Source: Planctomycetota bacterium
Lineage (GTDB): Bacteria > Planctomycetota > GCA-002687715 > DRQF01
DNA: 64,000 nt
Assembly (NCBI GenBank): GCA_011369445.1
Contig: DRQF01000169.1
Span: 1,632-65,631 of the forward strand
Reading direction: 5' to 3'
In this document: positions 34,577-53,764 of the stretch, in pieces
Layout: every line of letters begins with the position of its first letter
Numbering within the stretch: the first letter of the stretch is position 1
The notes under the pieces: generated by a model
The model's database searches: none
The model's input: only the letters and a program-made list of their open reading frames with translations
What the model was told of the DNA's origin: nothing
Made by a program: the position numbers and the translations under genes

Positions 34577-34977
34577 CTTTGATCCCTTCCTCGGATACAT
34601 GCATTCACCGTTTCCGTGCCACCGCGATGGCGGCCGGTTGGTTTCGGACCTTCGGGAATCAAAGGTGCTAGCCGGTCTTTCGCGTACTCTACGCCAGGGT
34701 ATCCACTGGGCTCGTGTTGGGACGATCACCCGGGCGCGCTCCGATGTACGGCCAGGATCTTAGCAGTCCGCGAGGGACAGCTCCAAGGTATTCCTCGAAT
34801 TCAAGATACGTGCGAGATGAGGACTCCGTAGGGGGTAAAAACCCGGTTTTCGGCCCTCGGGCCGGCTTTCGGCTCATCGCTGGCAGGGTCCTCGGTCGAA
34901 TATATAACCAAGAGGGGCGCCGAGAGGCCGACCGGGAGATCCGCGCATTTCCCGGTCGTTCCCCCAATGAACGGGGT

Positions 34978-38057: not shown

Positions 38058-39175
38058 TGGACAATCCCTCCATGATTCGACGCATCGAGCACGACCACTT
38101 CCGATTCAGGGAGATCGTCCGCGGTCGGATCAAAAGCGGGCTGCGCAAGTACGTGTCCAAGGGGGAACTGATCGCGCGCGTGGGCAAGAATAAGGTCTCC
38201 GTCCCGATTCCGCAGATCGAGTTGCCCAGGTTCAAGTTCGACCACTCCCAGGGGCAGGGCGTGGGGTCAGGTGAGGGGGAGCCCGGAGATCCGACGGGAG
38301 GGCAGCCGCAACCCGGTTCCGGTGAGGCCGGTGAGGGCGAGGGCGAGCACGTCCTCGAAGTCGAGGTCGAACTCGAGGAGTTGGCCAAGATCCTCGGTGA
38401 GGAGTTGGAGCTTCCCAACATCCAACCCAAGGGGCAGGCCGAGGTGGAGAGCCGCCGCGAGAAATACACCGGTTTGCGGAACACGGGGCCGGAGTCGTTG
38501 CGCCACATGAAGCGCACCTGGAAGAAGGCGCTCCGCCGAGAGATCGCCCAGGGGACATACGACCCTTCGAATCCCAGCATCATTCCCCTGCGCGAGGACC
38601 GGCGATATCGTTCCTGGAAGGTGAAGACCGAACCTCAGTACAACGCGGCCATCATCTACATGATGGACGTATCAGGTTCGATGGGTGCGGAGCAGAAGGA
38701 AGTCGTACGGATCACCGCATTCTGGATCGATCTTTGGCTGCGTCACCAGTACAAGAACATTCAGAGCGTGTTCATCGTGCACGATGCCACGGCCAAGGAG
38801 GTTGACCAGGAGACCTTCTTCCACCTCCGCGAGAGCGGCGGCACGAAGATCTCGTCGGCGTACAGCCTTTGTCGCGACATCATCGAGGAACGGTTTCCAA
38901 GCGATGACTGGAACATCTATCCGTTCCATTTTTCCGACGGCGACAACTGGTCGGGAAAGGACTCGGCTTGGTGTATTCAGTTGCTCGAGGAGTATTTGCT
39001 TCCCAGGTCCAACCAGTTCTGCTACGGCCAGGTCAAGTCCGCCTACGGAAGCGGCCAATTCAAGAGGGATCTCGACCAGAATCTCTCCGACGTGGACGGA
39101 TTGGTCACCACGGCCATTCCCGGCCGTGAGGGGATTCTCGACGCCATCCGCGAATTCCTGGGCAAGGGACGGTGA
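38054..39175 (+). CDS. DUF444 / YeaH-YhbH family protein (vWA-like)
   Basis: 373 aa. The N-terminus is [26 protein letters not shown], followed by an acidic Gly-rich insert and MDVSGSMG (MIDAS-like). It occupies the position between prkA and spoVR typical of the conserved trio. Confidence 0.85.
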
Positions 39176-39185
39176 GGGCTGACGC

Positions 39186-40652
39186 ATGCGCTTGAATCCC
39201 GAGCTTTCCCGTTGGCAACAGGTCATCGAGGAGCACGTCCGGTCCTACGGATTGGACTTCTTCGACGTTCACTTCGAAGTCCTATCCTATGACCAGTTGA
39301 ACGAAGTCGCGTCGTTCGGCGGATTCCCGACCCGGTATCCCCATTGGCGATTCGGCATGGCCTACGAACAGCTCAGCAAGGGCTACGAGTACGGCATGCA
39401 GAAGATCTACGAACTCGTCATCAACAACGACCCCTGCTACGCCTACCTGATGAGTTCCAATCCCCTCGTGGACCAGAAGATGGTCATGGCGCACGTCTAC
39501 GCGCACTGCGACTTCTTCAAGAACAACTACTACTTTTCGTTCACGAATCGGAAGATGATGGACGAGATGGCGAACCACGCCACGAAGATCCGTCGTCTGA
39601 TCGACCGAGTGGGATTGGAAAAGGTCGAGGATTTCGTCGACCTCGCCCTGTCTCTCGAGAACCTCATCGACCACATGGCTCCCTACATCGCGCGGAGCGG
39701 CGACGACCCCTCGCCCGAGTCGGAGGAGGGGCCACGGCGGATTCCCAGCAAGGACTACATGGACTCCTGGATCAATCCTCCCGAGTTCCTCGAGCAGCAG
39801 AAGAAGAAGTTGCAGGAGAATCAGGAGCGTCGCAAGCGGGCGACTCCGGATCCCATTCGCGACATTTTGGATTTCCTGATCCACATGGCACCTCTGGAGG
39901 ACTGGCAGGTCGAAGTCCTCGAAATCGTTCGGGCTGAGGCCTACTACTTCAACCCCCAGGCGATGACCAAGATCATGAACGAGGGCTGGGCGACTTATTG
40001 GCACCAGAAGATCATGACGAGGCATCTTTTGGACGACGCCGAGCTCATCGACTACGCCCAGACGATGTCCGGAGCGATCTCGTCGTCCGGTGGGCAACTC
40101 AATCCGTATCAGATCGGCTTGGCGCTCTACCACGATATCGAAGAGCGCTGGAACAAGGGGCGACACGGTCTCGATTGGGAGCGGTGCGACGACGCGACGG
40201 CCAAGCGCGAATGGGACACGGGAGCCATGGAGGGCCGGGAGAAGATCTTCGAGGTGCGGCGTCTCCACAGCGACGTGACGTTCATCGACGAATTCCTGAC
40301 TGAGGGGTTCTGTCATCGCCATAAGCTCTTCGTGTATGGCTGGAACCCGCAGACCCAGCGGCAGGAAATCCTCACGCGAGATTTCGATGCGGTGAAGGCG
40401 CAGCTGCTCCGTCAGCTCACCAACGGGGGACATCCCGTCATCGAGATCGTCGATTCCAACCACGCCAACCGGGGGGAGTTGTTGCTTCGCCATCGGTGGG
40501 ACGAGACGGATCTGAGGGACGATTACGCCCGAGAAGTGCTGAAGAACCTGGAGCGGATTTGGACGCGACCCGTCCTCCTCGAAACCGTGCAAAAGGAAAA
40601 GACCGTCCGCTACCGGTCGGTCGATGGCGAAGTCGAACTCGAGGTCGACTGA
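39186..40652 (+). CDS. spoVR: SpoVR family protein (YcgB-like)
   Basis: 488 aa. FGGFPTRYPHWRFGMAYEQL, YELVINNDPCYAYLM, AHVYAHCDFFKNN and NEGWATYWH are characteristic of SpoVR. Confidence 0.9.
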   Translation: MRLNPELSRWQQVIEEHVRSYGLDFFDVHFEVLSYDQLNEVASFGGFPTRYPHWRFGMAYEQLSKGYEYGMQKIYELVINNDPCYAYLMSSNPLVDQKMVMAHVYAHCDFFKNNYYFSFTNRKMMDEMANHATKIRRLIDRVGLEKVEDFVDLALSLENLIDHMAPYIARSGDDPSPESEEGPRRIPSKDYMDSWINPPEFLEQQKKKLQENQERRKRATPDPIRDILDFLIHMAPLEDWQVEVLEIVRAEAYYFNPQAMTKIMNEGWATYWHQKIMTRHLLDDAELIDYAQTMSGAISSSGGQLNPYQIGLALYHDIEERWNKGRHGLDWERCDDATAKREWDTGAMEGREKIFEVRRLHSDVTFIDEFLTEGFCHRHKLFVYGWNPQTQRQEILTRDFDAVKAQLLRQLTNGGHPVIEIVDSNHANRGELLLRHRWDETDLRDDYAREVLKNLERIWTRPVLLETVQKEKTVRYRSVDGEVELEVD

Positions 40653-40750
40653 GCCCTCCGGGGGTCAGCTCCCCGAAATCCGACGATCCCGCCCTGACGA
40701 GTCATCCCGATCACTGCTGTGGGCGTCCGGTTGGTTTAGTATGTTCCCCC

Positions 40751-41683
40751 ATGGAACCGGAGAGACGACAGCGAGGATTTGACTGGGCTTCGGCGATCTG
40801 GCCGTCCGATCGGGCGCATTTCGTGTTCCTGCTGGGCACGGCCATCCTCGCGATCATCTTCAGAAAGCCCGTTCCGAGGGCCTGGGACTGGTGCTGGGTC
40901 AATCTCGCTCTGGTGGGTTGTCTGGTGCTCCTTTGTCGCATCTGGCCGGATCCCCGACGGGGAGCCATCCCCCGGATGGCCTTCACGATGGTCGTCATCC
41001 CGGTGGTGTTCACCCAACTGGGGTGGCTCGTGCCCTTCGTGAATCCCCACGGCAAAGAAGAGCTCCTCTTCCACATCGACAGGGCGATGTTTTTCGGAGT
41101 GAACCCCGTGGAGGCGACGGCGCGCCTTGCGAATCCCGTCCTTACCGAGGTTCTTCAATGGGTTTATGACTTCTACTTCTTCATCGCGGTGATGCTCGGG
41201 TCGGCGGTGTTGAGAACGAAGGAGCCCAAGCTCCTGGCCCGCATCACCCATGCGTTCATCGTGTGCGTGTATGCCTCGTACGTGGGCTACTACCTGCTCC
41301 CGGCGAAGGGGCCCAACATCAACCATCTCGGGCTCTACAATTTTGCGACGGACCTTCCGGGCGTCTTCATGGCGCGGGAGTTGCGTGAGACCCTGTTCAT
41401 GATCGAGAAGATCAAACAGGACTGCTTTCCAAGCGGCCATACCGCCGTCTCCGTTCTCGCACTGCTGCTGGCCTACCGCTACGTGCCCAGGCTCGTGAAG
41501 CCGCTTTGGCCCCTGGTCGCCGCCCTTGTCTTCTCCACCGTCTATCTTCGCTACCACTACGTCGCGGACGTATTGGGAGGTATCCTGTTGGCACTGGTCG
41601 CCGACCGCTGGGCTCGGCGCAGCCACCTGAAATTCGAAGAGAGGCATTGGAAGAATCATGGTGAGCCGAGCGGAGCGAATTGA
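40751..41683 (+). CDS. PAP2-family phosphatase, integral membrane
   Basis: Internal ATG of ORF 40496..41683 (MEPERRQRGFDW). The protein is multi-TM. PAP2 motifs are FPSGHTAVS and RYHYVADVLGG. Confidence 0.75.
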   Translation: MEPERRQRGFDWASAIWPSDRAHFVFLLGTAILAIIFRKPVPRAWDWCWVNLALVGCLVLLCRIWPDPRRGAIPRMAFTMVVIPVVFTQLGWLVPFVNPHGKEELLFHIDRAMFFGVNPVEATARLANPVLTEVLQWVYDFYFFIAVMLGSAVLRTKEPKLLARITHAFIVCVYASYVGYYLLPAKGPNINHLGLYNFATDLPGVFMARELRETLFMIEKIKQDCFPSGHTAVSVLALLLAYRYVPRLVKPLWPLVAALVFSTVYLRYHYVADVLGGILLALVADRWARRSHLKFEERHWKNHGEPSGAN

Positions 41684-42374
41684 CGAAGCCCTCCTTCTCG
41701 TGGCGGGCGGAGAAGGCGTGCTTTGGGCCCTGGCACTGAATGAGATTCCTGTTCGCAGGACTTATATCGAGGCGGTCACCGGTCTCTCGGAGCGCGTCGT
41801 GGTCAAGGCTCTCGCACGACTTGCCAACGCCGGATTGTTGGCTCCTACGAAGGGGCTGCGATTCGAACTCGAATCGCCTGAGATGGCGAGGGACGTTCGG
41901 GAGCGGGTGCCGCCGGGCGAGCGGCGACAGATCCACGAGGAGAGTTTGAGGTACGAGTTTCCACCGGCCGAGGACCCCGGTCCGACCTTTCGCCTGGTTC
42001 ACCTGATGGGGGCAGACCGCGTGGCGGACGCTGGAAAGCTCATGCTCGAGATCCTCTCCCATGAGCCGCCCCAGATCGAGGCGGGGCGGGCAGCGACCCT
42101 CCTCGAGGAACTGATACGGCGGATCGACGACGTGGGGGACGAGCCCCTGGGCTTGATGGAGGGCTTGAAGCTGGCCTGGTTGCGCTGCGGTATGCAGACA
42201 TTGGGCCCTCGGAAACTGCGCGCCCTGGGAGAGGACTTGAAGGCGGCAGGTCTCGTCGGGGCAGCGGCCGCGACGCTGGACGCCCTTTTGGTCGAGATGG
42301 ACAGGGAACTGGCGGCGCGGGCGGCGCGTCGCAAGGCTCAGAAGAAGGCGGTCGGTTCGGAGGAGACGGCGTGA
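41658..42374 (+). CDS. Hypothetical protein with an N-terminal winged-helix-like segment
   Basis: 238 aa. RRTYIEAVTGLSERVVVKALARLANAGLL looks like a MarR/wHTH recognition unit, and the rest is helical. The gene overlaps both neighbours. Confidence 0.5.
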   Translation: MVSRAERIDEALLLVAGGEGVLWALALNEIPVRRTYIEAVTGLSERVVVKALARLANAGLLAPTKGLRFELESPEMARDVRERVPPGERRQIHEESLRYEFPPAEDPGPTFRLVHLMGADRVADAGKLMLEILSHEPPQIEAGRAATLLEELIRRIDDVGDEPLGLMEGLKLAWLRCGMQTLGPRKLRALGEDLKAAGLVGAAAATLDALLVEMDRELAARAARRKAQKKAVGSEETA

Positions 42375-43879
42375 GACACCGCGACCCATCCGTGTCCGCC
42401 CTTCTTCTCGCAGGCCTCCTCGCCATGTGCGTGGCCTCGATGTGCCCGGCCCAGGACTCCCTCAAACTCGAGGATGGGAGATTTCTTCAGGGAGAGATCC
42501 TCGGCAAGAAGAATGGAAAGATCCGTTTCGTCACGAAGGCGGCGCGGCTTATGGAGGTCGATCCCACCGACGTCGTGAAGGAGCGACGCGGCCGCAAAAT
42601 CCATCCAAAGATACGAGCGATGCTTGCAAAGGTCGACGCGGAGGACCCGGTCGCCCTGTTCGAGATCGTCCAGAGAATCGAGGGGAAAAAGGCGTGGGCT
42701 CGGGACGCGGTGCGGCTGGCCCGGCGGGCCGTCGCCTTTGATCCCGAGTTCGAAGAAGCCCGAAAGTTCCTGGGGCACGTCAAGTACGGCGATGTCTGGT
42801 ACTCGAGCAAGGAGGAGGCCCACGAGGCTCTGACCGAAAAAATGACCGCCGCCGGATACGTCTTCGAGAGTGGCGGTTGGGTCAAGGCGGAGAAGGCTGG
42901 CCGCCTCAAGAGTCAGCCGGACGCATTCATCTTGGTCGACGATCTCATCTGGCGCCCCCTCGAAGAGGTGATGAGGGAGAGGGGCTACGAGCTATGGGAT
43001 GGCCAGTGGTATCCCCCCGAAGAGAAGGCCATCATCATCTACCTGAAGCGCTTTCAGAAACGTATCGGCGTGAAGGCCCATGGAGCGATGAAGGGCGCCG
43101 TGCGGGTGATCCACGTGCAGGGACGGGAGAGCGCCCAGGAGACGGCTCAGGAGCTCGATCAGGCCAGGAACTGGTTTTGCGACACGTTTCAGGTGGGTCC
43201 GAAGTCGCGCCCGGACATTCGGCGTCTCCGCGAGGAGCCCTTCAGTTTCCACTATGTGCTCTCGGATGAGGCCGAACTCGCACGCTTTGCGGAGGCTTAC
43301 AAGGACAAGTTCAAGTTTCAGGATCTTGCGTTGACGCTTCCGAGGAAGCATGCACTCTGGCCCGACATGGGCCACGCGATTCATCTCGGCGAGAGCTTGT
43401 GGCGGAACTACCTCGTGGCGCAGCTGGGGGGCACCTTGATGCAGTGGTACTGGCACCGAGGTTTTCCTCTGCCGGCGTGGATCTGGGTGGCCTCCGCCCA
43501 TCACGCCGAGATCGCCGTCTTCGGTCAGGCGAGAACCCAATATGTCACCCGGGCGAAATATGACCGGACCACGAACCCCCCGGGACTCGATCGAAGAAAC
43601 CTCTCCGCGGCCAAGGAGGATCTCAGGGATCTGTACGAGGCCAAGGAGGTGAAGAGCATACGCGAGCTGTTCGCGAAGTCGTTCAACGAACTCGATTCAT
43701 CCGATGACCTCTTCGGCGTCGTCTTGTTCGATTGGTTCGTCAAGGAGCGATCGAAGGCGTGGTTCGGTTTCCTCTCTGGCCCGAAATCCGGGGCGCTCCA
43801 GAAGCGTTTCGAGAAGTACTTCGGCGGCAAGTTCGAGAAGGTGGAGCGGGATTTCAAGGCCTGGGTGATGGCCGACTGA
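42371..43879 (+). CDS. Secreted hypothetical protein
   Basis: 502 aa with a signal peptide (VSALLLAGLLAMCVASMCPAQD). I recognised no family. It is the last gene of the co-directional block that begins at rluD. Confidence 0.6.
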   Translation: MRHRDPSVSALLLAGLLAMCVASMCPAQDSLKLEDGRFLQGEILGKKNGKIRFVTKAARLMEVDPTDVVKERRGRKIHPKIRAMLAKVDAEDPVALFEIVQRIEGKKAWARDAVRLARRAVAFDPEFEEARKFLGHVKYGDVWYSSKEEAHEALTEKMTAAGYVFESGGWVKAEKAGRLKSQPDAFILVDDLIWRPLEEVMRERGYELWDGQWYPPEEKAIIIYLKRFQKRIGVKAHGAMKGAVRVIHVQGRESAQETAQELDQARNWFCDTFQVGPKSRPDIRRLREEPFSFHYVLSDEAELARFAEAYKDKFKFQDLALTLPRKHALWPDMGHAIHLGESLWRNYLVAQLGGTLMQWYWHRGFPLPAWIWVASAHHAEIAVFGQARTQYVTRAKYDRTTNPPGLDRRNLSAAKEDLRDLYEAKEVKSIRELFAKSFNELDSSDDLFGVVLFDWFVKERSKAWFGFLSGPKSGALQKRFEKYFGGKFEKVERDFKAWVMAD

Positions 43880-43904: not shown

Positions 43905-46034
43905 TCAAGGAGCGGCCAGCTTGAACTGCCCCTCGTTCTGATCGGCCAGCCGACGCATGAAGTCGGCGGAGGGATCGACCCCGTCGATTCCCAGGCTGGA
44001 GACGAAAAGGGAGTGGATTTGGAGCCTCCTGTACCGGTTGCGCTCGCGAACGGCCTTCAGGATCTCCGAGGTCTGGGTGATTCGACCCGCTGACGGCTGG
44101 CCGTCCGTGAGGACCACGATCGTGTCCGCCTCCTTGTCCTTGAAGGCACGTTCGATCCCACCCCAAAGATTCGTTCCTCCGTCCGCGCGGACGTCGCGGA
44201 GCCTCTCGATCGTGCCCTTCTTGCGGGACGGCGTGGCGGGGCGAATCCCACCGAAGAAGCTCGTCACGCCGCCGGAGAAGAGCAGGACATTGTAGGAGCC
44301 GGGGGGTGAGAGAGAGGAGATCGCGCGGCGGAGTTCCACCTTCAAGGTCTCCAGCTTGCCGCCATTCATGCTCCCGGAGATGTCGCAGACGAACACGATG
44401 CGATTGCTTCGCAGGTCGAGGCCATAGAACATGGGGCCGTACCGCTCGTTTGCGGCCCTTGCATGGAGGGCCGGCGGAAGGCGAAGCGGCACCCAGTTTT
44501 GGGGAAGGGTCTCGATCCATGCCGCCCACACCTTCGGGGCGACACCGAAACGCTTGCCGGTGAGATACGCCAAACCGTCCGCCGCGACTCTCGCGAGTCG
44601 GTAGTGATCGAAGCCCGTGGCGCGTGCCAGTTGGGGGAGCACCTGGCGCCTTCCATCCTTGATGAGGGCCTCGATCGCGGCAAGCCTGACCTGCCAGCGA
44701 CGATGTGCCAGGAAGGGCTCCATGCGGCGGCCGAAATCGTCGAGGGACGCCGTCCCGGCCAGGGGGAGCAGGGCCGTCAGGAGACGCCAGTCCTTGTGAC
44801 GTTCCAAGGACTCGGTGAGCCACATCCTTGCGGTGGCCCCGGCGACGCCGGCATCCGCGAGACGTCGAAGCTTCGTCCAGTGAAGATCGAATCCTCCCGA
44901 GCGAATGCGACCGCGGACGCGCTCCCAGGGGCGTTGACGGCCGGTGGAGTCGGCCAGAGTCAAGGCCGCCCAGGTCGCCGTGACGAGGGATTCGTCGCGA
45001 GCGAGACGCTCAAGGTGCTTCACCAGGTCGGCTCTTGGATGGCTGCGGAAGAAGAGGACTGCGAGCGCCTTGGCTTTCGGCTCCGGGTCGCTGAGGAGGC
45101 TGAAGAAGAAGGGGTTCAGTTTTTCGATTTCACTGGCTTGCATGATGTCGAAAAGGCGACGAACGTCCGCCCACGGTACGTCCTCAATCCGCTTGGCCAG
45201 CTTCACTACCAAGGAGGGGCGGCCCGATGCCGAAAGAACCCGTCTCATCCCGCTGGCTTCGGCTCGTGCCAGGTCGACGATCCACGCGTCCACCACGAGA
45301 TCCTCGGCTCCGGGAGTTCCGCGACGAAGGAGTTCGAGTGCGGCTTCGCCGGCATGGAGGCGATCCTGATCTTCCACCGCGGCCACCCAAAACGGCATCC
45401 GGTCATCGGCGGGGAGATGTCTTGCCACCCGCCAGATGTCTCCCTGGACGACGGGGTTTTCGCTTTCACCGTAGAGGTCGGTGAGGAATGTCGTTGCTTT
45501 GGCGCGCAGGGGGTCGTCCTCATCCAGGAACAGGGTGAGAAGCCGTAGGAGGGCCGAGCCCAGGGGATCGCCCAAGTGGCGTCGAATCTGTTCTTCGAGC
45601 AGAGCGAGGCTTTCCGTCCTGGCCTTCGACTCGCGGATGAGAAGGTCGATGAGGTCGACCTTCTCGGCGATTCCGGGGGTCTTCTCGTAGAGCGTGAGAA
45701 TCGTCGACTTGGCGTCCGCCAGTGGGTGGTAGATGATCGCCTCGAGGGCGTCCCAGGCGTCATCGTCCCGCGGCCACCTCCGAAGGAGGGAGCGGAGAAA
45801 ACCGAGGGAACCCTTCGTACCGACCCTTTGGGCCGCGTGAATGAGGAGCGTGCGTCGTGTGGGGGAGGACGCCGCGGACCGCCAGGCGTCCTCCCAGCGA
45901 CCGATGTCCCATGTCCGATTCTGCGCTTGGACGGCGTTTGCGGTGCAGAGGATCCACATGAGGCAGAAGCCGGCGCGACGGGCTGAAGTCGCCCGTCTCC
46001 GCTGCTGCTGCCGGTGTGGGTGTCCTGGGGCCAT
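43905..46034 (-). CDS. HEAT-repeat protein with a C-terminal von Willebrand factor A domain
   Basis: ORF 43905..46760. I prefer ATG 46034 (MAPGHPHRQQQRRRATSARRAGFCLMWILCTANAVQAQ), which is preceded by GAAAGGA. The C-terminal vWA segment is IVFVCDISGSMNG...ADGGTNLWGGI...TIVVLTDGQPS. The ORF part upstream of 46034 is antisense to the neighbouring repeat gene. Confidence 0.75.
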   Translation of the reverse strand: MAPGHPHRQQQRRRATSARRAGFCLMWILCTANAVQAQNRTWDIGRWEDAWRSAASSPTRRTLLIHAAQRVGTKGSLGFLRSLLRRWPRDDDAWDALEAIIYHPLADAKSTILTLYEKTPGIAEKVDLIDLLIRESKARTESLALLEEQIRRHLGDPLGSALLRLLTLFLDEDDPLRAKATTFLTDLYGESENPVVQGDIWRVARHLPADDRMPFWVAAVEDQDRLHAGEAALELLRRGTPGAEDLVVDAWIVDLARAEASGMRRVLSASGRPSLVVKLAKRIEDVPWADVRRLFDIMQASEIEKLNPFFFSLLSDPEPKAKALAVLFFRSHPRADLVKHLERLARDESLVTATWAALTLADSTGRQRPWERVRGRIRSGGFDLHWTKLRRLADAGVAGATARMWLTESLERHKDWRLLTALLPLAGTASLDDFGRRMEPFLAHRRWQVRLAAIEALIKDGRRQVLPQLARATGFDHYRLARVAADGLAYLTGKRFGVAPKVWAAWIETLPQNWVPLRLPPALHARAANERYGPMFYGLDLRSNRIVFVCDISGSMNGGKLETLKVELRRAISSLSPPGSYNVLLFSGGVTSFFGGIRPATPSRKKGTIERLRDVRADGGTNLWGGIERAFKDKEADTIVVLTDGQPSAGRITQTSEILKAVRERNRYRRLQIHSLFVSSLGIDGVDPSADFMRRLADQNEGQFKLAAP

Positions 46035-46130
46035 GGAAGTCCTTTCGTGTGCAGTGTCGTACGTGAGATCGGACGGTGGAAGTGCCTGCAAGTTACCTCT
46101 GAATGCCGGAGTTCTCGAATCTCTCGACTG

Positions 46131-46156
46131 TTGGAAGACCGCGGAGGGGTTATAAT
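46131..46156 (+). promoter_or_regulatory. Promoter-like element with a perfect TATAAT
   Basis: TATAAT at 46151-46156 lies in a locally AT-richer divergent intergenic region. The nearest -35-like hexamer, TTGGAA at 46131-46136, has a spacing of only 14 nt. The element would drive the gene starting at 46297. Confidence 0.3.
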
Positions 46157-46296
46157 GGCAGTGATGAGCGGATGAACCGGAGCAACCTCGGGGCTCCGGG
46201 CCCGCCAGGCTAGGCGCGTTCCCGATCCCTGAATCAGCTCCCATGCGCTGTCCCCGGAGGGACGCCGCAGGACAACCCGTCTTCGGAGGATCGACC

Positions 46297-48201
46297 ATGA
46301 AGCACCCTATCATCACCCTCACGTGTCTTCTCCTCGGGGCCATGCTCGTCCTGGGAGACATCGCGACAGCCCAGCGGGGAAGAGTGGGACGCTCCAGCAG
46401 CGTCGGACGTTCGGGGGGAATCAGCCGATCCGGCGGGTTCAGCCGCTCGCGCGGGGGTTCGCGCCCCTCCGTCGGGCGTTCCCGTTCGTTGGGTGGACGG
46501 TCTCGGCCCTCGATCGGACGCTCCCGGCCGTCCGTGGGACGAACTCGGCCGTCTTTCGGTCGTTCTCGGCCGTCCTTCGGCCGTTCGGGGTCCACGCGAT
46601 CCTTGGGCCGGACGCGTTCGCAGGGATTCAGTTCCGGGAGTCTCGGGCGGTCCTTCGGCCGTGGGTCGTCCGGATTCACGCCTCGGTCGAGTCGCTCCGG
46701 GAGCTCCAGAGGATTCGGTAGCGCTTCGGCGGGAAGGCGTCGCACCGCACCGTTTGGCACGAGTCGCAGTCCACGCCTCTACCGGGGGCGCTACTCCCCG
46801 TCGATCTCCAGAAACCCCTCGGTGCGCTCGGGGCGGAGTCCATCACTCTCCCGATCCCGTTCCACCCGACGCTTGGGGGCTTCGTCCATCGCTCGCGGGG
46901 GTTTGGGGCGCGACGGTCTTCGGTCGCCGTCTCCGGATCGCATCGCCGCTCCCAGGCGCTCGCGCGGTTTCGAAGGGTTCTCCGTCAGCGGTCGCAAGAC
47001 AGCCCGCCCTGAGAGTTATCGCAAGGAACTCGCCCGCCGCGTGGGGGGGGCAGCGGGAAAGAGGTTCGAGAAGGGCGGTGCGCTCGGCGACGGGGCCCCG
47101 GGCGTCCCTGGCAATGGGAACAAGGGTCGGGGCATCCCTGGCCTGGGGAACGAGGGGCGCGGTGGACCCGGCATGGGGAAACCCGGAGTCGGTAAGCCGG
47201 GCGCGGGAAAGCCCGGCGTGGGGAAACCCGGAGTCGGGAAGCCAGGCGTGGGAAAGCCTGGAGCGAGGCGTCCTCCCGGCAAGGTCGGACACCTCCACTG
47301 GGGTGACATCGACCACAACACCAAGGTCAACGTCAACATCTTCGTCGGAACCTACGGATACGGCTTCGGTTTCTACTACGGCCACTTCCATCACGGTTGG
47401 TGGCGTCACTACGGCGGCTACCTGGGCTACTATCCCTACTGGTTTTGGAGTTCGTGGTGGTATCCCTATTGGGGCTATGCCTATTACCCCTACTACTGGT
47501 CCTACCTCTACTATCCGGCCTATCGCGTGCACGATGTGTACGTCTATCATGAGCCCTACTACACCACCTCCGGGTACTATGCGGGCGCCGGATTCGATGA
47601 TGACCCGTACTACGACGAGGAGGGCTCGAGCTACTCAGGCGCAGGTGTGTCCCGCGCCGAAGACGCGACGCCTCCGCGGCGACCCGTGGCCACGGACCAC
47701 GCCTTCGCAAAACCATTCGTCGAGGGGGTCGATGCTGGCGGCACCGCGGCGGCGGCGATTCAATTCGGGAATCGCGCCATGGCGCGCAAGGAGTTCCGGC
47801 GGGCCGCCGAGGCCTACCGCCAGGCCTTTCACCTTGATGGGGGCAACGACGCCCTGCGTCGCATGTCGATTGCGCTCTTTGCAGCGAACGATCCCCCCCT
47901 GGCTTCTGCCGCCATGGTCCTGGGCATCGCGGGCGAGAGGAAGGGGATGCTTGACTATGCCGTCCTGATCGACGAGCTGCTTCCTAAGGGCACGTTCGCG
48001 AAGAGTCTCGCCGCCTTGGAACGCTATCTCGTGGACGAGCCCAACGATGAGGCCTCCAACCTCTTGCTGGGCGCCCTCTACGTCGTTTCAGGTCGCGAGT
48101 ATGCGGGCTACATCGTCCTCACCCGACTGAAGGCCGCCGGGTACGAGACCTCGACCGTGGATCTTTTCATCGATCAGGCACGCACCGGGCTCATGAAATG
48201 A
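46297..48201 (+). CDS. Secreted low-complexity protein: Arg/Ser/Gly-rich repeats, GKPGV repeats, Tyr/Trp-rich block, TPR-like C-terminus
   Basis: Internal ATG of ORF 46243..48201 (MKHPIITLTCLLLGAMLVLGDIATAQ, a signal peptide). The reading frame is consistent through all repeat blocks. The C-terminal ~190 aa look like an ordinary helical/TPR-like domain, which argues for real coding. Confidence 0.7.
   Translation: MKHPIITLTCLLLGAMLVLGDIATAQRGRVGRSSSVGRSGGISRSGGFSRSRGGSRPSVGRSRSLGGRSRPSIGRSRPSVGRTRPSFGRSRPSFGRSGSTRSLGRTRSQGFSSGSLGRSFGRGSSGFTPRSSRSGSSRGFGSASAGRRRTAPFGTSRSPRLYRGRYSPSISRNPSVRSGRSPSLSRSRSTRRLGASSIARGGLGRDGLRSPSPDRIAAPRRSRGFEGFSVSGRKTARPESYRKELARRVGGAAGKRFEKGGALGDGAPGVPGNGNKGRGIPGLGNEGRGGPGMGKPGVGKPGAGKPGVGKPGVGKPGVGKPGARRPPGKVGHLHWGDIDHNTKVNVNIFVGTYGYGFGFYYGHFHHGWWRHYGGYLGYYPYWFWSSWWYPYWGYAYYPYYWSYLYYPAYRVHDVYVYHEPYYTTSGYYAGAGFDDDPYYDEEGSSYSGAGVSRAEDATPPRRPVATDHAFAKPFVEGVDAGGTAAAAIQFGNRAMARKEFRRAAEAYRQAFHLDGGNDALRRMSIALFAANDPPLASAAMVLGIAGERKGMLDYAVLIDELLPKGTFAKSLAALERYLVDEPNDEASNLLLGALYVVSGREYAGYIVLTRLKAAGYETSTVDLFIDQARTGLMK
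46477..46602 (+). repeat. In-frame 21-bp tandem repeat (about 6 units) encoding RSRPS(I/V/F)G heptads
   Basis: Units read directly from the sequence are cggtctcggccctcgatcgga, cgctcccggccgtccgtggga, cgaactcggccgtctttcggt and cgttctcggccgtccttcggc, with degenerate flanking units. Confidence 0.8.
47176..47265 (+). repeat. In-frame 15-bp tandem repeat x6 encoding GKPG(V/A)
   Basis: The sequence ggg aaa ccc gga gtc / ggt aag ccg ggc gcg / gga aag ccc ggc gtg / ggg aaa ccc gga gtc / ggg aag cca ggc gtg / gga aag cct gga gcg was read directly. Confidence 0.85.
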
Positions 48202-48246: not shown

Positions 48247-50043
48247 CTACCGGCCAGACATCCAACTTTGGCGGATTCGCAGCTGTTTGGGCGTCGCCCC
48301 TTTCATGGGGCGGATCGTCGCTCGGATCCTCCCGGGCGCGAGCGACACCTCGACGTCTTGAACCTTCTTTCTCCCCTTGAGGGACAGGGTCACGGTGTCG
48401 CCTGGTTGATGGCGGGCGAGAAGAGTCGAGAGATCATAGTCTTTCTTCCCGTCGATGGCGACGATGAGATCCCCTCGTTGGATGCCCTTCTCCCGCAAGG
48501 CCGTGTTGACGAACCGCACGTGAAGGTGTCCCGTAGCGTCCTCCCTGTGAACGAACGGAAGCGCCGGCGGCATCTCGACCCTTGTGAATTCGAGGCCCGC
48601 ATAGGAGAGGATCTCTGCGATGGGCGGGTCCACCGTGCCCCGGACATGGCGTGCGAAGAACTCCGAGAAATCGTAGTTGCTGACGGCCGTGCAGGCCCGC
48701 TCGATGTCGCCCTCCTCGAAACCGATCCATCTCTCCGCGAACCAGCGATTGAGGAATCTCATGACGTCGTCCAGCGACTTCTTGTTGTCGGTTTTCTCCC
48801 GAATCATGAGGTCGATCAAGAGCCCCAGATACTCACCCTTGCCGTAGTAGTCGACGCGTCGGCCCTCCGGTTCGTTCCGGTAACGATGCCAGACGTTTCG
48901 GCTGGCCCAATAGACGGAATGCTCGTGGCTGCGCGGCTTCGACAGCTCCCTCGACATTTTCGAAGCCATGCTCTGAAGGTATTGGTCGAGATCGGTGATG
49001 TTGGCGCGCAGCATGGACAGATCTCCGTAGTAGGAAGTCCACCCCTCGGAGACCCACAGGTTGCCCGTGTAGTTCTCATGCTCGTATTCGAAGGGCCCAA
49101 GGGTCTTCGGGCGGATGCGCTTGACATTCCAGGTGTGGAAGAACTCGTGAGCCGTGATGCTGGCGATCGCCTTGGGGTCGGATCTCAGAGCGGGGCCGGA
49201 TAGGCCGATGCTTGTCGAGTTGAGGTGCTCCAATCCACCACCACCGCCGCCGCCCGTGACGGTGAAGAGGAAGAAGTACTTGAAGAAGGGGTAGCTCCCG
49301 AAAACTCCTCCCTCGGTCTCGACGATGCGCCGTACGACGTCCGTGCAGGCGTCCAGGTCGAAGTCGTAGCTGCCGGTGAGGTCGAAATAGACGCAGGCGA
49401 AGGGGGTCGCGCCCACCCGGAACTCCTTGGTCTTGAAGTGGCCGAGCATGGTGGGGCAGTCGATGAACGTGTCATAGTCCCGAGCCGTGCGAACGAATCG
49501 GTCCTCGGTGGGGATCATCCCGTTGGCGATGTCCCATCCCTCCGGCAGTTCGTACCTACACGTGACCGGCCGGTCCTTGTGTCCGACGACGTACATGTAG
49601 GTGACGGGGCCCTGAATGTGGAGTCCTTCGGGTTTTTTGCTCTGCTGGCCGGGCATGAAGCGGCGACGGCCCGGAGGAACGACGTAGCGAATGCGAACGT
49701 CTCCGATGCCCGCCGTGGAGATGGACCAAGTGGCGTGGTCGATTCGCAGAGCGTCGAGAGCTGCGCCGGTCTGAGCGTTGACGGCCCGGAGTTCCTTCAC
49801 GTTCTTTCCGGCGTTGTGAAGGCGATAGGCTCCGGGCGACCAGTTGGGCATGGCGACGCGGAGGTGATCCGTGTGAACCCGCCCGACGTGGAGCGTGACT
49901 TCCAAGGATCGCAGGTCAGGAAGGACCTTCACGGTGTAGTCGATCACCGGAAGGATGAGATCGTCGCGGTTTTCTTGAGCGACTGCGAATTCGAGGCCAG
50001 ACACCAGCACGAGAGCGCAGAGACAACGGAGAAGGGGTTTCAT
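48247..50043 (-). CDS. M61 family glycyl aminopeptidase with C-terminal PDZ domain
   Basis: ORF 48247..50331. I prefer ATG 50043 (MKPLLRCLCALVLVSGLEFAVAQ), which is preceded by GGAGGAAA. The metal motif HEFFHTWNVKRIRP is present. The C-terminal PDZ-like segment is REKGIQRGDLIVAIDGK. Confidence 0.85.
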   Translation of the reverse strand: MKPLLRCLCALVLVSGLEFAVAQENRDDLILPVIDYTVKVLPDLRSLEVTLHVGRVHTDHLRVAMPNWSPGAYRLHNAGKNVKELRAVNAQTGAALDALRIDHATWSISTAGIGDVRIRYVVPPGRRRFMPGQQSKKPEGLHIQGPVTYMYVVGHKDRPVTCRYELPEGWDIANGMIPTEDRFVRTARDYDTFIDCPTMLGHFKTKEFRVGATPFACVYFDLTGSYDFDLDACTDVVRRIVETEGGVFGSYPFFKYFFLFTVTGGGGGGGLEHLNSTSIGLSGPALRSDPKAIASITAHEFFHTWNVKRIRPKTLGPFEYEHENYTGNLWVSEGWTSYYGDLSMLRANITDLDQYLQSMASKMSRELSKPRSHEHSVYWASRNVWHRYRNEPEGRRVDYYGKGEYLGLLIDLMIREKTDNKKSLDDVMRFLNRWFAERWIGFEEGDIERACTAVSNYDFSEFFARHVRGTVDPPIAEILSYAGLEFTRVEMPPALPFVHREDATGHLHVRFVNTALREKGIQRGDLIVAIDGKKDYDLSTLLARHQPGDTVTLSLKGRKKVQDVEVSLAPGRIRATIRPMKGATPKQLRIRQSWMSGR

Positions 50044-50161: not shown

Positions 50162-53100
50162 TCAGCGTCCTCGCGGAAAGGTGGGGGCGATCGTGCGGGT
50201 CTGCCAGGTGTCCATCCACGGAGCGGTCTCGAGAACGTGCTTGGGGGGGTAGCCGCCCATGCGGTGGTAGGGGAGAGGAGCCACGGTGTCCGGCGCCGCC
50301 GTGAGCGGATCCATGTCCTTGCACCAGCCATCCGTCAAGAGGAAGTAGGTGCGCCGGGTCCCAGGAGGAATGGGAGGAAGGCGTCGAGCCTGCACTTCGA
50401 GAACGATTTCCTCGCCGTGATTCATCACGACGTAGCGATCGTCGACATGGGAAAGCAGTTCCCTGACGTCTCCGTAGCGGGTGTATCGCCCTCCCATCGT
50501 CTTCCAGGAAAGCGCTGGCAGAATGTCATCGTAGTCGTAGATCTCCGGTTTTCTTCCCTCGGGGAGGACTTCTCGGGGATACCCCAAGAATCGCAGCTCG
50601 GCGCGATCGAAACCGAGTTGCGTGGATCGGACGATGGCGCTGGGATCTTCCCATGCCAGTCTCACGCGATCCACATGGACTTCCAGGTTGGTGCGCAGGC
50701 GGATCTGTTCGAATTCCCCCGATGCGAGGGCGGTCACGTCAAGCGCCATCGACCGCGTCATTCCTCCGGGGTAGCCCACGTTTTCGAGAACTGTTTCCCA
50801 CATGCCGGTGGGCGAGGTCTTGCGGTCGACGCTGAGGGCTTGCGCCTCCACGCCGGCTTGCCACGCCGCAAAGTTGATGTGGGAGTAGGGATACTCGACC
50901 CAACCGTCGAGGATGAGCCAAAGGTGCGCGTCGGCGTTCGGACGAGCGGCAAGGATTTCCTTACTGTCGAATCGGAGAGCGATGCGTTGCTCTCTGGCCA
51001 AGTAGCCCAAGAAGCGTCGATCCACCTCCATGCCCTTCACGAAGCGACGGTCCTCGTGGAGTAGGTCCTCGAGGACGTCGTCGCCTTTGGCATTGCGCGC
51101 TTCTTCGGGAAGGAAAGGCCTGCGCAGGGCGAGGGGACGGCCGGTCGGGAAGGGGGCTGATGTCCCCAGCCGTTCGTCACAGTAGACCTCGACGTCTTCG
51201 GAATGGTCGACGGCGAGAAGCGAGAGAGCGTCCAGATAGGTGATCTCCTCCATCGGCTCCACGACGCGCAATTCGAGCAACCCCTCCCGCACGGGGAGGG
51301 ATCCGATTCTTACGGTCTCGGTTTCGTCCGGAGGGGCGTAGGAGCCGGGGCCCACCAGGAAACCGAGACCGCCAACACCCAGGAAGTCCGTGACGAACTC
51401 GAATCCCGAACCGTCAGAGCGGGCTTTGAAAAGGACGGGGCAGGAGGACGCTTTTCGATTGATCTCTTCATAGACGTGGAGGCGATCAGCCTTGAAGTCG
51501 ATCTCGCTTTGAAGGACGAGATCTGGCCAGAGGACGCGGACCGCGTCGGCGTTCGTGTAGGTTCCCAATCCGATGTGAAGGGGGGCTGAGATGGAGGTAT
51601 TCGGCCCCGATACCGTCGACGAGAAGGCATGAACCCCCCGGTTGCCGGCCATCACCTCCACCGAGGCTCCCATCCCATGAGTGTTGGACCACATCTCCGC
51701 CAGCGACAGTTCTCGCTTCCCCTTGAGCGAGAGTTCCAACCAGTGGAGGGGGCTTTGGCTCGTGTTGATGAACTCGACAATTCGACCCGATGAGTCGGCC
51801 GCGAGAAGGTCCAGCAGTCCGTCTCCGTTACGATCATGGATGGCGACGGCCCGAGCGTGAAGGTTCTTGGCCAAGATGCCAGGTCTGGCCCAAGCCTCGC
51901 CGCTGTCTTGCCTCACCGCGACCAGATCGCCCGATTCCAGGTCGGAGAAGACCAGGTCGGGATCGCCGTCGTTGTCGAGGTCGCCCGACCAAACGAGGGC
52001 GGGTCGTCCGATCATGTCGGTGCGGCGCCTTGCGGCGTTCGGGAAGCCATTCCAGACCGCGACCGCGGAATTCCCCGTGGAGCGACTCAGGAGGACGTCC
52101 GGTGTCCCGTCCTGGTCGATGTCCGTGACACATGCACCGGAGGCTCCCCCGGCGTCATCCCATCCCAGTTCCGGGGGAGCGGGATGATAGATCCACAACC
52201 GATCGTTCAGGAGAAGACGATCCTCGCTCCCGTCGTTTTGGAGCAACACATCGACGTCACCGTCGCCATCGACGTCGAAGACCGCCAATCCCACCGTGTG
52301 CTGCGCCGCGCCGCGCAAGCCCGTGCGTTCTCCAATATCGGTGAACGGGGGCTCGTCACCCGACTTTCGGTTCTTCTCATAGATCGTCGGCCGATTGTTG
52401 TTGTAGAGAAAGTTCGGAGCGCCCTCGAAATCGGCGGGGTAGGACAGGTCCTTTCCGGCCGGTGAACCGGCCGCGGGAAGAGTGAGCTCGTTGGCGACCA
52501 GGATGTCGAGGTCGCCGTCATGGTCGGCATCCACGAACTGGGCGGAGCGAGTCAGAGCATCGCCGCCTCCAAACTCGGAGGTGAACTGGAAGACGCCCTT
52601 GCCGTCGTTGAGGCCCAGCAGGTTTCGTCCGGCGCCGTAGATGTACAGGTCGAGGTCATGGTCATGGTCCACATCTCCCATGACGGCGCCCAGAGCGATC
52701 AGATCTCCGCCGGCGGCGGCGAGCCCCGACGCTTCCGTGACGTCCTTCAGTTCGTCGTCTTGGGCGAGAAGAATCCGCCCGGCCCCTCGACCATCGCTCG
52801 AGAACAGGTCGAGGTCTCCGTCGCCGTCGATATCGCCAAGTGCGATGCCACCGGAGAGAGCAGGAGCAACTTGGCTCGTGAGAAACCCACGCACGTCGTC
52901 GCCTTTCGAGCACTGGAGGGCGTCGGGCCACGTTTTCGCCGGGGAGACCGCTTTCGCAAGTTCCTTGGATCGAAAGGTCAGTGGTACGGGGGGAGGCCCC
53001 GATTTCGGTTTCGATCCGTCAAAGTGGTCCATGCTCCGAATCACTTCGGACAGGCGGCCCATCTGGTTGTAGACGACCGCGAAAGTCTTGCCCATGGACG

Positions 53101-53764
53101 GCTTCGCATTCTGGTAGAGCGCAAACAAGCGGTTGGCCTCCTTGGCTTCCACCGGTCGCTTCAGTCGTCGCAGGGAGAGAGCCAAGGTGTTCCACGCGCC
53201 GATGAAATGGGGTTCGAGCTTGACGGCCGTGCGCAGCAGCTGGACGGCCTCCTTCAACTGGGGCGGCCTCTTCTCGAACAGGACCTTTCCCAGCCGATAG
53301 CAGCAGTCCGGATCCGTGGGAGCCAACTCCCAGGCCCTTCGAAAGCTCTTCTCGACAAGGCTTCGTTCCTCGCCCAGGTAGTCGAAAAGGATGCCCAGCG
53401 TGAAATGGGCTCGGGCCATATCGGGGTGCTCGCCGGCCAATTCCTCCAGCAATGAGCGACACTGCGCAAGCTGCTTGGCGCGCGCCGCGTCGTCCGTCGT
53501 TTGGGCGTTGAGCAGGGCCACCGCCAGGTTGAAGCGGGCCGTCGTCGATTTCGGTGCGCCTGCCTTCAATCGAATGAAGAGGGGGAGAGCTTCTCCAACC
53601 TTCTGCTGATCCATGAAGGAGACGGCGTGATTGTTCAGAGTCACGGCCTCGTCGAATGTCAAGGGACGTGACTGCCCGCTTTCCTTCGGTTCCGATTCCT
53701 TGGAACAGGCGAAGAAGAGGAGAACAGGGACCAAGACAAGGTAAGCGGATGGGCGGAAAGCCAT
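50162..53764 (-). CDS. CRTAC1-family protein: TPR + FG-GAP/VCBS repeats + ASPIC/UnbV domain + long C-terminal region (putative lipoprotein)
   Basis: 1200 aa. The N-terminus is LVLVPVLLFFACSKE, followed by TPR-like helices. Repeated D-x-D-x-DGD-x-D motifs are present (GDIDGDGDLDL, DADHDGDLDIL, DVDGDGDVDVL, DLDNDGDPDLV). The UnbV_ASPIC-like segment is NTHGMGASVEVMAGN...PLHIGLG. Confidence 0.8.
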   Translation of the reverse strand: MAFRPSAYLVLVPVLLFFACSKESEPKESGQSRPLTFDEAVTLNNHAVSFMDQQKVGEALPLFIRLKAGAPKSTTARFNLAVALLNAQTTDDAARAKQLAQCRSLLEELAGEHPDMARAHFTLGILFDYLGEERSLVEKSFRRAWELAPTDPDCCYRLGKVLFEKRPPQLKEAVQLLRTAVKLEPHFIGAWNTLALSLRRLKRPVEAKEANRLFALYQNAKPSMGKTFAVVYNQMGRLSEVIRSMDHFDGSKPKSGPPPVPLTFRSKELAKAVSPAKTWPDALQCSKGDDVRGFLTSQVAPALSGGIALGDIDGDGDLDLFSSDGRGAGRILLAQDDELKDVTEASGLAAAGGDLIALGAVMGDVDHDHDLDLYIYGAGRNLLGLNDGKGVFQFTSEFGGGDALTRSAQFVDADHDGDLDILVANELTLPAAGSPAGKDLSYPADFEGAPNFLYNNNRPTIYEKNRKSGDEPPFTDIGERTGLRGAAQHTVGLAVFDVDGDGDVDVLLQNDGSEDRLLLNDRLWIYHPAPPELGWDDAGGASGACVTDIDQDGTPDVLLSRSTGNSAVAVWNGFPNAARRRTDMIGRPALVWSGDLDNDGDPDLVFSDLESGDLVAVRQDSGEAWARPGILAKNLHARAVAIHDRNGDGLLDLLAADSSGRIVEFINTSQSPLHWLELSLKGKRELSLAEMWSNTHGMGASVEVMAGNRGVHAFSSTVSGPNTSISAPLHIGLGTYTNADAVRVLWPDLVLQSEIDFKADRLHVYEEINRKASSCPVLFKARSDGSGFEFVTDFLGVGGLGFLVGPGSYAPPDETETVRIGSLPVREGLLELRVVEPMEEITYLDALSLLAVDHSEDVEVYCDERLGTSAPFPTGRPLALRRPFLPEEARNAKGDDVLEDLLHEDRRFVKGMEVDRRFLGYLAREQRIALRFDSKEILAARPNADAHLWLILDGWVEYPYSHINFAAWQAGVEAQALSVDRKTSPTGMWETVLENVGYPGGMTRSMALDVTALASGEFEQIRLRTNLEVHVDRVRLAWEDPSAIVRSTQLGFDRAELRFLGYPREVLPEGRKPEIYDYDDILPALSWKTMGGRYTRYGDVRELLSHVDDRYVVMNHGEEIVLEVQARRLPPIPPGTRRTYFLLTDGWCKDMDPLTAAPDTVAPLPYHRMGGYPPKHVLETAPWMDTWQTRTIAPTFPRGR

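Follow-up and report, generated by a model that had tools for sequence, protein, structure and literature searches.

The locus at positions 46297..48201 (+) of a 64,000-nucleotide stretch of contig DRQF01000169.1 from a Planctomycetota bacterium (assembly GCA_011369445.1; the whole stretch is called the window below) raises the question of whether an open reading frame (ORF) of such extreme composition, in which a long arginine-rich tail is followed by a block that is almost half tyrosine, tryptophan and phenylalanine, is a real gene, and what a protein built in this way could do. The ORF was found to be one real gene of 634 amino acids (aa), coding over its whole length. Judged by sequence comparison, its product belongs to a conserved family without a name or a curated model, restricted to Planctomycetota as far as the named sources show, and it may act as a sticky, self-associating scaffold of the envelope or matrix.

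The complete coding sequence (CDS), 634 aa plus the stop codon, was delimited with the ORF list, the GC content of third codon positions (GC3) and a codon comparison with L003, an independently assembled relative from an uncultured Planctomycetia metagenome-assembled genome (MAG). The open frame extends over 46243..48201 (+) and an in-frame ATG is also present at 46243, but the start at 46297 is preferred because a Shine-Dalgarno-like GGAGGA, read directly at 46285..46290 (+), lies 6 nt before it. In all homologues the start lies directly ahead of the hydrophobic stretch, which likewise supports 46297. GC3 is 0.73-0.78 in the CDS frame, the top frame for every block. L003 aligns with the 634-aa protein end to end at 86% protein identity, and the sole length difference is an in-frame indel of 15 codons that falls at the pentads and the stretch directly behind them. 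In the first 293 codons, comprising the signal peptide and the Arg/Ser/Gly-rich block and compared without gaps, 112 synonymous and 35 non-synonymous codon differences and no stops were counted, with position 3 taking 127 of the 166 differences. Block by block, synonymous and non-synonymous differences numbered 102 and 31 in the Arg/Ser/Gly-rich block, 20 and 18 in the aromatic block, 15 and 5 in the linker, and 61 and 11 in the C-terminal tetratricopeptide repeat (TPR) domain. These counts indicate that the low-complexity tail is under purifying selection. The first-pass annotation had argued for a real gene in one consistent frame, and GC3 and the codon comparison bear this out.

The same annotation had left room for the true gene being an extension of the minus-strand ORF 43905..46760 (-), with only the C-terminal third coding on the plus strand. 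This antisense ORF of 951 aa overlaps the 5' end of the 634-aa gene and shares its third codon positions with the plus frame, so that third-position bias alone cannot separate the two. Within the overlap, the plus frame differs from L003 by 57 synonymous and 23 non-synonymous codons without a stop, whereas the antisense frame differs by 42 and 35 and meets one stop in L003. In addition, the ORF of the corresponding minus-strand gene, which encodes HEAT repeats and a VWA domain, has no long antisense extension in L001. The minus-strand extension thus fails on both the stop in L003 and the gene structure in L001.

In databases the gene is recorded only in part. The NCBI record of the window protein (P0001, 'hypothetical protein ENK43_09385 [Planctomycetes bacterium]') covers the last 317 aa only, and many family genes have been cut at the N-terminus by gene callers, which also place spurious ORFs antisense to the 5' half, where the sequence is GC-rich and of low complexity. 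Neither the 634-aa nor the 317-aa product had an exact match in the contig index that was queried. Examples are L001 (5724-6083), where a 310-aa call is accompanied by a 119-aa antisense ORF, and L007 (9325-9963), where a 567-aa call is accompanied by two. Further ORFs in other frames overlap the gene in the window at 46493-47968 (+) and 46843-47550 (-). An Rfam search over the gene region gave no match, and consensus scans for promoters and terminators found nothing.

Homologues were sought in a database of 1.84e9 cluster representatives with a profile that spanned both the aromatic block and the C-terminal domain. The search returned 205 proteins at E<=1e-3, of which 34 reached E<=1e-10 and 13 reached E<=1e-30, and the majority of the matches covered the aromatic block and the TPR domain together. 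With an aromatic block defined as >=24 Tyr/Trp/Phe per 80 aa, such a segment (24-39 per 80 aa) was present ahead of the same TPR domain in at least 104 of the best 150 representatives of 50%-identity clusters, and in 87 of 103 additional matches from a second search. The window protein aligns end to end with P0002-P0014 (E 1e-178 to 1e-32). The named source organisms are all Planctomycetota MAGs, except for one labelled just 'bacterium', and the database labels are 'hypothetical protein' or 'tetratricopeptide repeat protein'. In the DNA of L001 and L003-L007, the same frame continues upstream through a Gly/Ser/Arg-rich region to a hydrophobic N-terminus.

The first-pass annotation had proposed checking whether homologues of the C-terminal domain carry similar N-terminal blocks, and the same modules were found at every readable locus. 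The order is identical in the window, L001, L003-L007, P0015, P0024 and P0029, namely a signal peptide ending in A-then-Q[R/K], a cationic disordered region, an aromatic block, a DPY(V/Y)E motif and TPRs. Homologues exist for every part of the protein, against the lack of any homologues that the first-pass annotation had named among its refuting outcomes. Across the family, the cationic Gly/Ser/Arg(/Pro) region measures 280-500 aa and the aromatic block 80-100 aa, the latter with Tyr/Trp/Phe at 30-49% alongside Gly/Pro/His or Cys. The aromatic block of the window protein holds 39 aromatics in 80 residues, its linker motif is FDDDPYYDEE, and its TPR motifs are AAEA[YF]R and LE[RK]YL..NP.D. Profile and domain searches returned no homologues outside the TPR superfamily. 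Searches of the literature turned up analogies only, and no published Tyr-rich, aromatic-rich or TPR family from planctomycetes.

The aromatic block was located by composition count at aa 349-428 (47341..47580, +). The hand count in the first-pass annotation was exact, with 26 Y, 8 W, 5 F and 6 H in 80 residues, to which 11 G and 5 P are added here. The aromatics are packed in runs such as WWYPYWGYAYYPYYWSYLYY, and four aromatic-Y-P-(Y/A)-aromatic motifs lie at aa 379, 389, 397 and 406. In the 11 neighbouring genes Y+W+F make up 9.0% and the richest 80-aa windows hold 9-18 aromatics; against this background the chance of >=39 aromatics in 80 is 4e-20 (binomial P). Positionally, only YP/YPYY is fixed across the family: among 25 diverse members P398 is invariant and Y397 is conserved at >=90%, while the aromatic content is retained and the positions and the Y/W/F mix drift. 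Some members are F/G-rich in this block, and a distant branch (L007, L009, L010 and L011) is W- and Cys-rich, with up to 19 W and 5-12 Cys per 80 aa. A recurrent (I/L)L(D/E)RY(R/G) motif was also seen in the disordered tail of these four. No model in Pfam or NCBIfam matches the aromatic block or anything upstream of the TPR domain, in line with the earlier remark that the protein could not be matched to a described bacterial family.

The acidic linker noted earlier is likewise present, at aa 429-470 (47581..47706, +), with the motif FDDDPYYDEE, for which the family consensus is DPYVE. In the same 25 members P437 is invariant and D436 and Y438 are conserved at >=90%, and in every full-length member the linker is negative overall, at -4 to -11 net charge.

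At the other end of the protein, a Sec-type signal peptide is predicted at aa 1-25 (MKHPIITLTCLLLGAMLVLGDIATA then QRG...; 46297..46371, +) from a conserved cleavage-site pattern. It consists of a positive n-region (MKH), a hydrophobic h-region (PIITLTCLLLGAMLVLG) and DIATA followed by Q, with small residues at -3 and -1, and AlphaFold2 (AF2) places a helix at aa 5-19. The 10 full-length members share an invariant Ala at -1 and Gln at +1, with A/G/V/I/L at -3 and Arg or Lys at +2, and 15 database entries with intact N-termini follow the same pattern. The conservation of -3/-1 and of Gln at +1 in all readable homologues is consistent with the signal peptide that had been read from the window protein alone.

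The signal peptide is followed by a polycationic Gly/Arg/Ser-rich region at aa 26-293 (46372..47175, +), delimited by composition and by an AF2 predicted local distance difference test (pLDDT) score <50. R+S+G account for 63% of aa 27-293 (56 R, 56 S and 57 G of 267), with a binomial P of 7e-48 against the 11 neighbouring genes. The whole cationic tail, aa 26-348 with the pentads and the pre-aromatic segment included, has a net charge of +61 and an isoelectric point of 12 and is composed of 22% G, 18% R and 17% S; aromatics are sparse in it (11 F and a few Y). The equivalent tail in homologues is 279-501 aa long with a net charge of +20 to +74.

Two conserved islands interrupt this region. Island 1, APFGTSRSPRLYRGRY, lies at aa 151-166 (46747..46794, +), and its motif AP[FY]GT..[SG]PRLY[RS]G.YS is present in the window protein, L001, L003, L005, P0004 and P0154 and partial in L004, P0006 and P0011. 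Island 2, GFEGF...PESYRKELARRVGG, lies at aa 224-251 (46966..47049, +), and its motif [SD]YR..L..R.G, frequently after GF.GF, was found in 13 of the 19 close family members examined. A short helix is predicted at aa 238-250, the only AF2 helix in the disordered region, with a pLDDT of about 52.

The tail also contains two repeat arrays. The RSRPSxG heptads described earlier are present at aa 68-95 (46498..46581, +), but the exact form was found by regular expression only three times, with one further RTRPSFG; Tandem Repeats Finder (TRF) reported a 21-nt period with 4.4 copies and 76% match at 46495-46586, and SRPSIG repeats occur in the distant homologue P0029. All six of the GKPG(V/A) pentads were recovered, at aa 294-323 (47176..47265, +; regular expression, and TRF 15-nt x6.1 with 72% match). 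Both arrays are thus degenerate at the DNA level, and the same organisation is seen in the independent L003 assembly, apart from the in-frame 15-codon difference, so that misassembly is unlikely. Read in the other register, the pentad becomes KPGVG, an elastin-like xPGxG and a form of the VPGxG pentad. Elastin-like polypeptides have long arrays of such pentads, and the window protein has six KPGVG/KPGAG units, an array too short for a claim of elastin-like behaviour. Close relatives vary in the number of units or lack them: in L003 the array plus the following segment is 15 codons shorter, in frame, and L001 has none. By this comparison the pentad array is lineage-specific and no hallmark of the family. 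A His-containing junction (GHLHWGDIDHNTKVNVNI) at aa 324-348 (47266..47340, +) leads into the aromatic block, near a low-confidence AF2 beta-hairpin at aa 345-360, and homologues have His runs at this junction, e.g., HHHHDHY and HNHHHHHYDNDDH.

On the evidence of profiles and predicted structure, the C-terminal domain belongs to the TPR superfamily and is the only part assignable to a known family. It occupies aa 471-634 (47707..48198, +) and was identified with AF2, profile and Foldseek searches, so the TPR-like helical assignment of the first-pass annotation holds, but its length is about 165 aa (9 helices, about 4.5 TPRs) and not about 190. With a 70-sequence alignment, AF2 predicted nine consecutive helices of 12-16 residues at aa 484-633 with a pLDDT of 94-98. 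By the same measure the low-complexity regions are predicted to be disordered, with a pLDDT <50 over aa 24-466, bar a few short stretches slightly >50, and of 29-39 throughout the aromatic block. The family profile against the PDB gave TPR proteins among its best matches (E 1e-45 to about 1e-12), the best being a 16-repeat design with 14 matched stretches at E 1e-45, with 3-4-repeat designs and OGT at about 1e-12. In Foldseek against the PDB, the top 50 were all TPR proteins with generic folds only (probability 0.97-1.0). Of 8 close members searched against Pfam, 5 are recognised by TPR_19, at E 3.4e-10 for the best, and no domain other than TPR was found in this set; the window protein alone stays below threshold in Pfam TPR models (16.9-19.6 bits against a cut-off of 25). 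The family motifs are AAEAYRQA and LERYLVxNPNDExSNLLLG, and the window protein carries AAEAYRQA and LERYLVDEPNDEASNLLLG. Judged by the codon counts and by AF2, this domain is both the best-conserved and the only folded part.

Compared with known TPR proteins (CpoB/YbgF, BamD, PilF and MamA-type), the C-terminal 165 aa form a bona fide TPR array, but TPRs make up only about a quarter of the window protein, and the matches are generic (designed consensus TPR, OGT, MamA, PEX5), without a specific orthologous group. We know of no TPR family with a signal peptide, a polycationic tail and an aromatic block ahead of the TPRs.

The genes beside the family gene bear on where its product resides and what it could meet there. 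On the opposite strand in the window lies the gene of a HEAT-repeat protein with a C-terminal VWA domain, about 709 aa and predicted to be exported (43905..46034, -; Pfam VWA_3 and HEAT_2), whose true start is near 46034 or 45959. It adjoins the family gene in L001, L003 and L006 and is absent in L004. The family gene itself looks monocistronic, being divergent from the HEAT+VWA gene and convergent with the gene of an M61/PDZ peptidase. The order in the close branch is SpoVR, PAP2, a 238-aa unknown, a 502-aa unknown, HEAT+VWA on the opposite strand and the family gene, which is kept in L001 (as far as the contig reaches), L003 and L006, and in L004 without the VWA gene. At four loci of the distant branch (L007, L009, L010 and L011), a HEAT protein of about 300 aa, an unknown of about 400 aa and the family gene stand in a row on one strand, with galactokinase conserved next on the opposite strand. 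Three of these HEAT proteins have lipoprotein-type starts (...ATGC, ...AAGC and ...IGAC), and at least one of the ~400-aa unknowns (L007) starts with a signal peptide. The 502-aa and ~400-aa unknowns are unrelated (hhalign probability 0.1%; nothing in BLASTP). The HEAT partners of the two branches share only the last repeat and a G..fG..p..W..W..LP tail (hhalign probability 25%); the HEAT part in the window ends in the motif LTGKRFGVAPKVWAAWIETLP, and the small HEAT lipoproteins of the distant branch end similarly. A HEAT-repeat neighbour is thus a recurring, weakly supported association of the family gene.

Taken together, the modules suggest, with some way to go before even odds are reached, a multivalent scaffold of arginine and aromatic residues that acts outside the cytoplasm and is docked by its TPR domain. 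The parts of this reading differ in strength. It is likely that the protein is exported through Sec and cleaved after Ala25, because -3/-1/+1 are conserved, the neighbours have signal peptides or lipoboxes and the aromatic blocks of relatives are Cys-rich. Self-assembly as a sticker scaffold is put forward tentatively, because the conservation is at the level of composition, disorder is predicted and the protein is analogous to tested Arg/aromatic proteins. In such an assembly, the aromatic block of one molecule would bind the Arg-rich tails of others by cation-pi and pi-pi contacts, as well as other aromatic blocks, giving a condensed, gel-like or insoluble network, and the polycationic tail could also bind anionic envelope or matrix polymers. 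It is doubtful, if conceivable, that the TPR domain anchors this assembly to a partner protein or a short motif, the docking candidates being the adjoining HEAT-repeat protein, islands 1 and 2 and the DPYVE motif. The broadest version, in which the window protein would be the first known of a class of extracytoplasmic block-copolymer formers of condensates or gels throughout Planctomycetota, with a polyarginine-like disordered and a separate, almost purely aromatic block joined by cation-pi contacts into a material of the periplasm or cell surface and TPRs addressing it to a HEAT partner, is unlikely.

The adhesive, phase-separating or matrix-forming role suggested in the first-pass annotation is plausible by analogy with proteins that have been tested. 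In a secreted glycine-rich protein of tick cement, Arg/aromatic cation-pi contacts drive coacervation and gel ageing, and both are weaker without Arg or aromatics (PMC11794139). The window protein resembles FUS-like proteins and this tick protein (PMC11794139) in its Gly-rich disorder, many Arg and plentiful Tyr/Phe, the tick protein also lying behind a signal peptide. Those of them that were tested coacervate and age to gels through both cation-pi and pi-pi contacts. The window protein differs from both in that there is no homology, its Arg and aromatics stand in separate blocks, the aromatic one having almost no polar spacers (49% Y/W/F), a TPR domain is attached, and the host is a bacterium in which the protein is presumed to sit in the periplasm or at the cell surface. 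The even spacing of aromatic stickers by G/S/Q/N that marks FUS-like sequences is absent, as 39 of 80 residues are packed in one block, and the resemblance to FUS is functional at best. Within the phylum, Brosi_A1236, an S-layer protein of the anammox planctomycete 'Ca. Brocadia sinica', is exported, and its disordered regions bind one another, undergo phase separation and act as a glue for cells and negatively charged particles (PMC7482068). Compared by description, it shares with the window protein the planctomycetal origin, disordered low-complexity regions and, if the predicted signal peptide holds, export; its disorder, however, consists of Thr/Ser/Gly-rich C-terminal repeats on a large beta-rich S-layer protein, without an Arg-rich tail, aromatic block or TPR domain.

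Several points weigh against a secreted sticker scaffold. Under the positive-inside rule, a net charge of about +60 directly after the signal peptide is unfavourable for Sec export, and the topology could be the reverse of the one proposed. The phase-separating proteins tested so far have their aromatics spaced by polar residues, and a contiguous block with 49% aromatics may fold, aggregate or insert into a membrane beyond what AF2 predicts. AF2 runs on the aromatic block with the TPR domain and on the full length gave no confident structure outside the TPR domain, and no confident contact of the TPR domain with DPYVE or the islands. The link to HEAT proteins, finally, is one of neighbourhood only, with the weak profile similarity given above (hhalign 25%).

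The charge distribution would suit a signal-anchored cytoplasmic protein, the main rival as to topology, in which an uncleaved N-out/C-in helix leaves the tail, aromatic block and TPR domain in the cytoplasm to bind RNA, DNA or polyphosphate at the membrane in the manner of RGG/RS and Tyr-rich proteins. The C-terminal flank carries a net charge of about +60 and the N-terminal flank only Lys2 and His3, the h-region is rather long at about 17 residues, and the R/G/S composition is like that of nucleic-acid-binding RGG/RS regions. This topology is nevertheless rather improbable. All 10 full-length members keep the residues expected of a signal peptidase I site, with Ala at -1, Gln at +1 and something small or aliphatic at -3; 5-12 Cys occur in the aromatic block of the distant branch; and the operon partners are lipoproteins or have signal peptides.

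About equally improbable is a periplasmic TPR adaptor of the CpoB, BamD, PilF or BcsC type, whose low-complexity part would serve as a flexible tether or ruler across the wide planctomycetal periplasm. A variable tail length (279-501 aa) is what a tether would allow, and the TPR domain, with 61 synonymous against 11 non-synonymous differences, is the best-conserved and only folded part. A passive spacer, however, would not keep 30-49% aromatics, a cationic charge, two islands and DPYVE over >100 clusters, and the tail itself is under purifying selection.

Mussel foot proteins, extensins, and eggshell and spore-coat proteins are models for a covalently cross-linked wall or adhesive protein, in which Tyr (and Trp, His and Lys) would be oxidised in dityrosine- or DOPA-type (3,4-dihydroxyphenylalanine) chemistry to give an insoluble layer, holdfast or cement. 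In favour are the 26 Tyr among the 80 residues of the block, with Lys-Pro-Gly pentads and His on its flank, the disorder predicted by AF2, and Tyr-rich secreted precedents (PMC4220933). Yet no tyrosinase, peroxidase or laccase gene adjoins the family gene at any locus examined, and in many members Tyr is replaced by Trp or Phe, neither of which can do this chemistry. A match of the whole protein to Pfam Extensin_1 was rejected as spurious, being below threshold (19.9 bits against a gathering score of 105) and confined to the pentads, and SPPPP motifs are absent. A cross-linked protein of this kind is quite unlikely.

A still poorer fit is a matrix protein that templates metal or mineral in the manner of silaffins and cingulins, its cationic repeats and His/Tyr/Trp block binding or nucleating the mineral or metal. 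Diatom cingulins, which belong to an insoluble matrix, pair basic repeats with Tyr-rich regions (PMC4220933), and the domain plan of the window protein resembles theirs; His runs stand ahead of the aromatic block in many members, and MamA-type TPR proteins are among the fold matches. Cingulins, silaffins, AC3362 (PMC4220933) and mussel foot proteins are secreted and end in insoluble matrices or adhesives, and what the window protein shares with them is the pairing of basic low-complexity repeats with a Tyr-rich part. Compared by description, they are eukaryotic and use Lys and not Arg, Lys-rich KxxK regions alternating with Y- or W-rich ones in cingulins and silaffins. They rely on the chemistry of silica or DOPA, TPRs are absent from them, and their aromatic density is far lower, e.g., 8 mol% Tyr in AC3362 (PMC4220933). 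The chance of a templating role is small, as the TPR matches are generic, the basic residue is Arg, no mineral-related genes were found nearby in the neighbourhood domain scans, and no sequence similarity to cingulins or silaffins turned up, although no direct comparison was made. The weakest alternative, that the locus is not a single gene because only the C-terminal third is coding, the antisense ORF is real or the repeats are an assembly artefact, draws on the calls of only 310-317 aa by NCBI and other callers and on the antisense overlap, but has next to no chance and is effectively excluded, since the signal peptide and cationic tail are in frame in 7 of 7 readable loci and the codon comparison and the reproduced degenerate repeats speak for the plus frame.

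Other genes of the window were recorded alongside. An operon of the YeaG/YeaH/YcgB type, PrkA (AAA and kinase-like), DUF444 and SpoVR, lies at 36021-40652 (+), followed on the same strand, with overlapping or close ends, by a PAP2 phosphatase (40496-41683), the 238-aa unknown and the signal-bearing 502-aa unknown; L003, L004 and L006 have the whole row from PrkA to the 502-aa protein in synteny, and L001 has the part that begins with PAP2. The 502-aa protein (42371-43879, +) has a signal peptide and, in an alignment of five orthologues, many invariant Trp/His/Arg positions, and no Pfam or NCBIfam model matches it. A connection between this operon and the family gene through Ser phosphorylation of the RS-like tail was considered and not adopted: the family gene is a separate transcription unit, distant family members have no PrkA neighbourhood, and PrkA is cytoplasmic, which counts against its acting on the tail. 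On the other side of the family gene lies a signal-bearing M61 glycyl aminopeptidase that also has a PDZ domain (48247-50043, -), next to a 1200-aa TPR and FG-GAP/ASPIC (UnbV) protein (50162-53764, -); both are conserved in L003. A 773-aa protein with an FGE-sulfatase (formylglycine-generating enzyme-like) domain (32408-34729, -), encoded upstream of a pseudouridine synthase, is of a kind typical of planctomycetes and has no bearing on the aromatic-block family.

Regardless of function, the architecture of this family is hidden in many database entries by truncated calls. Its block-segregated sequence design has, to our knowledge, no earlier description. If the proposed mechanism of an exported sticker scaffold is true, Arg/aromatic sticker chemistry, familiar from animal adhesives and eukaryotic condensates, would be used outside the cytoplasm by a whole bacterial phylum, and the family would open a molecular way into the envelope or matrix of planctomycetes, of which little is understood. 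In that case the polycationic tail and the aromatic block, with its Y/W/F content of up to 49%, would also be attractive as material-forming peptides. If the less likely phylum-wide version with TPR addressing to a HEAT partner also holds, these proteins would give bacteria an exported equivalent of the Arg/Tyr grammar of eukaryotic condensates, and they may have a part in the unusual envelope, the holdfast or the aggregate matrix of Planctomycetota.

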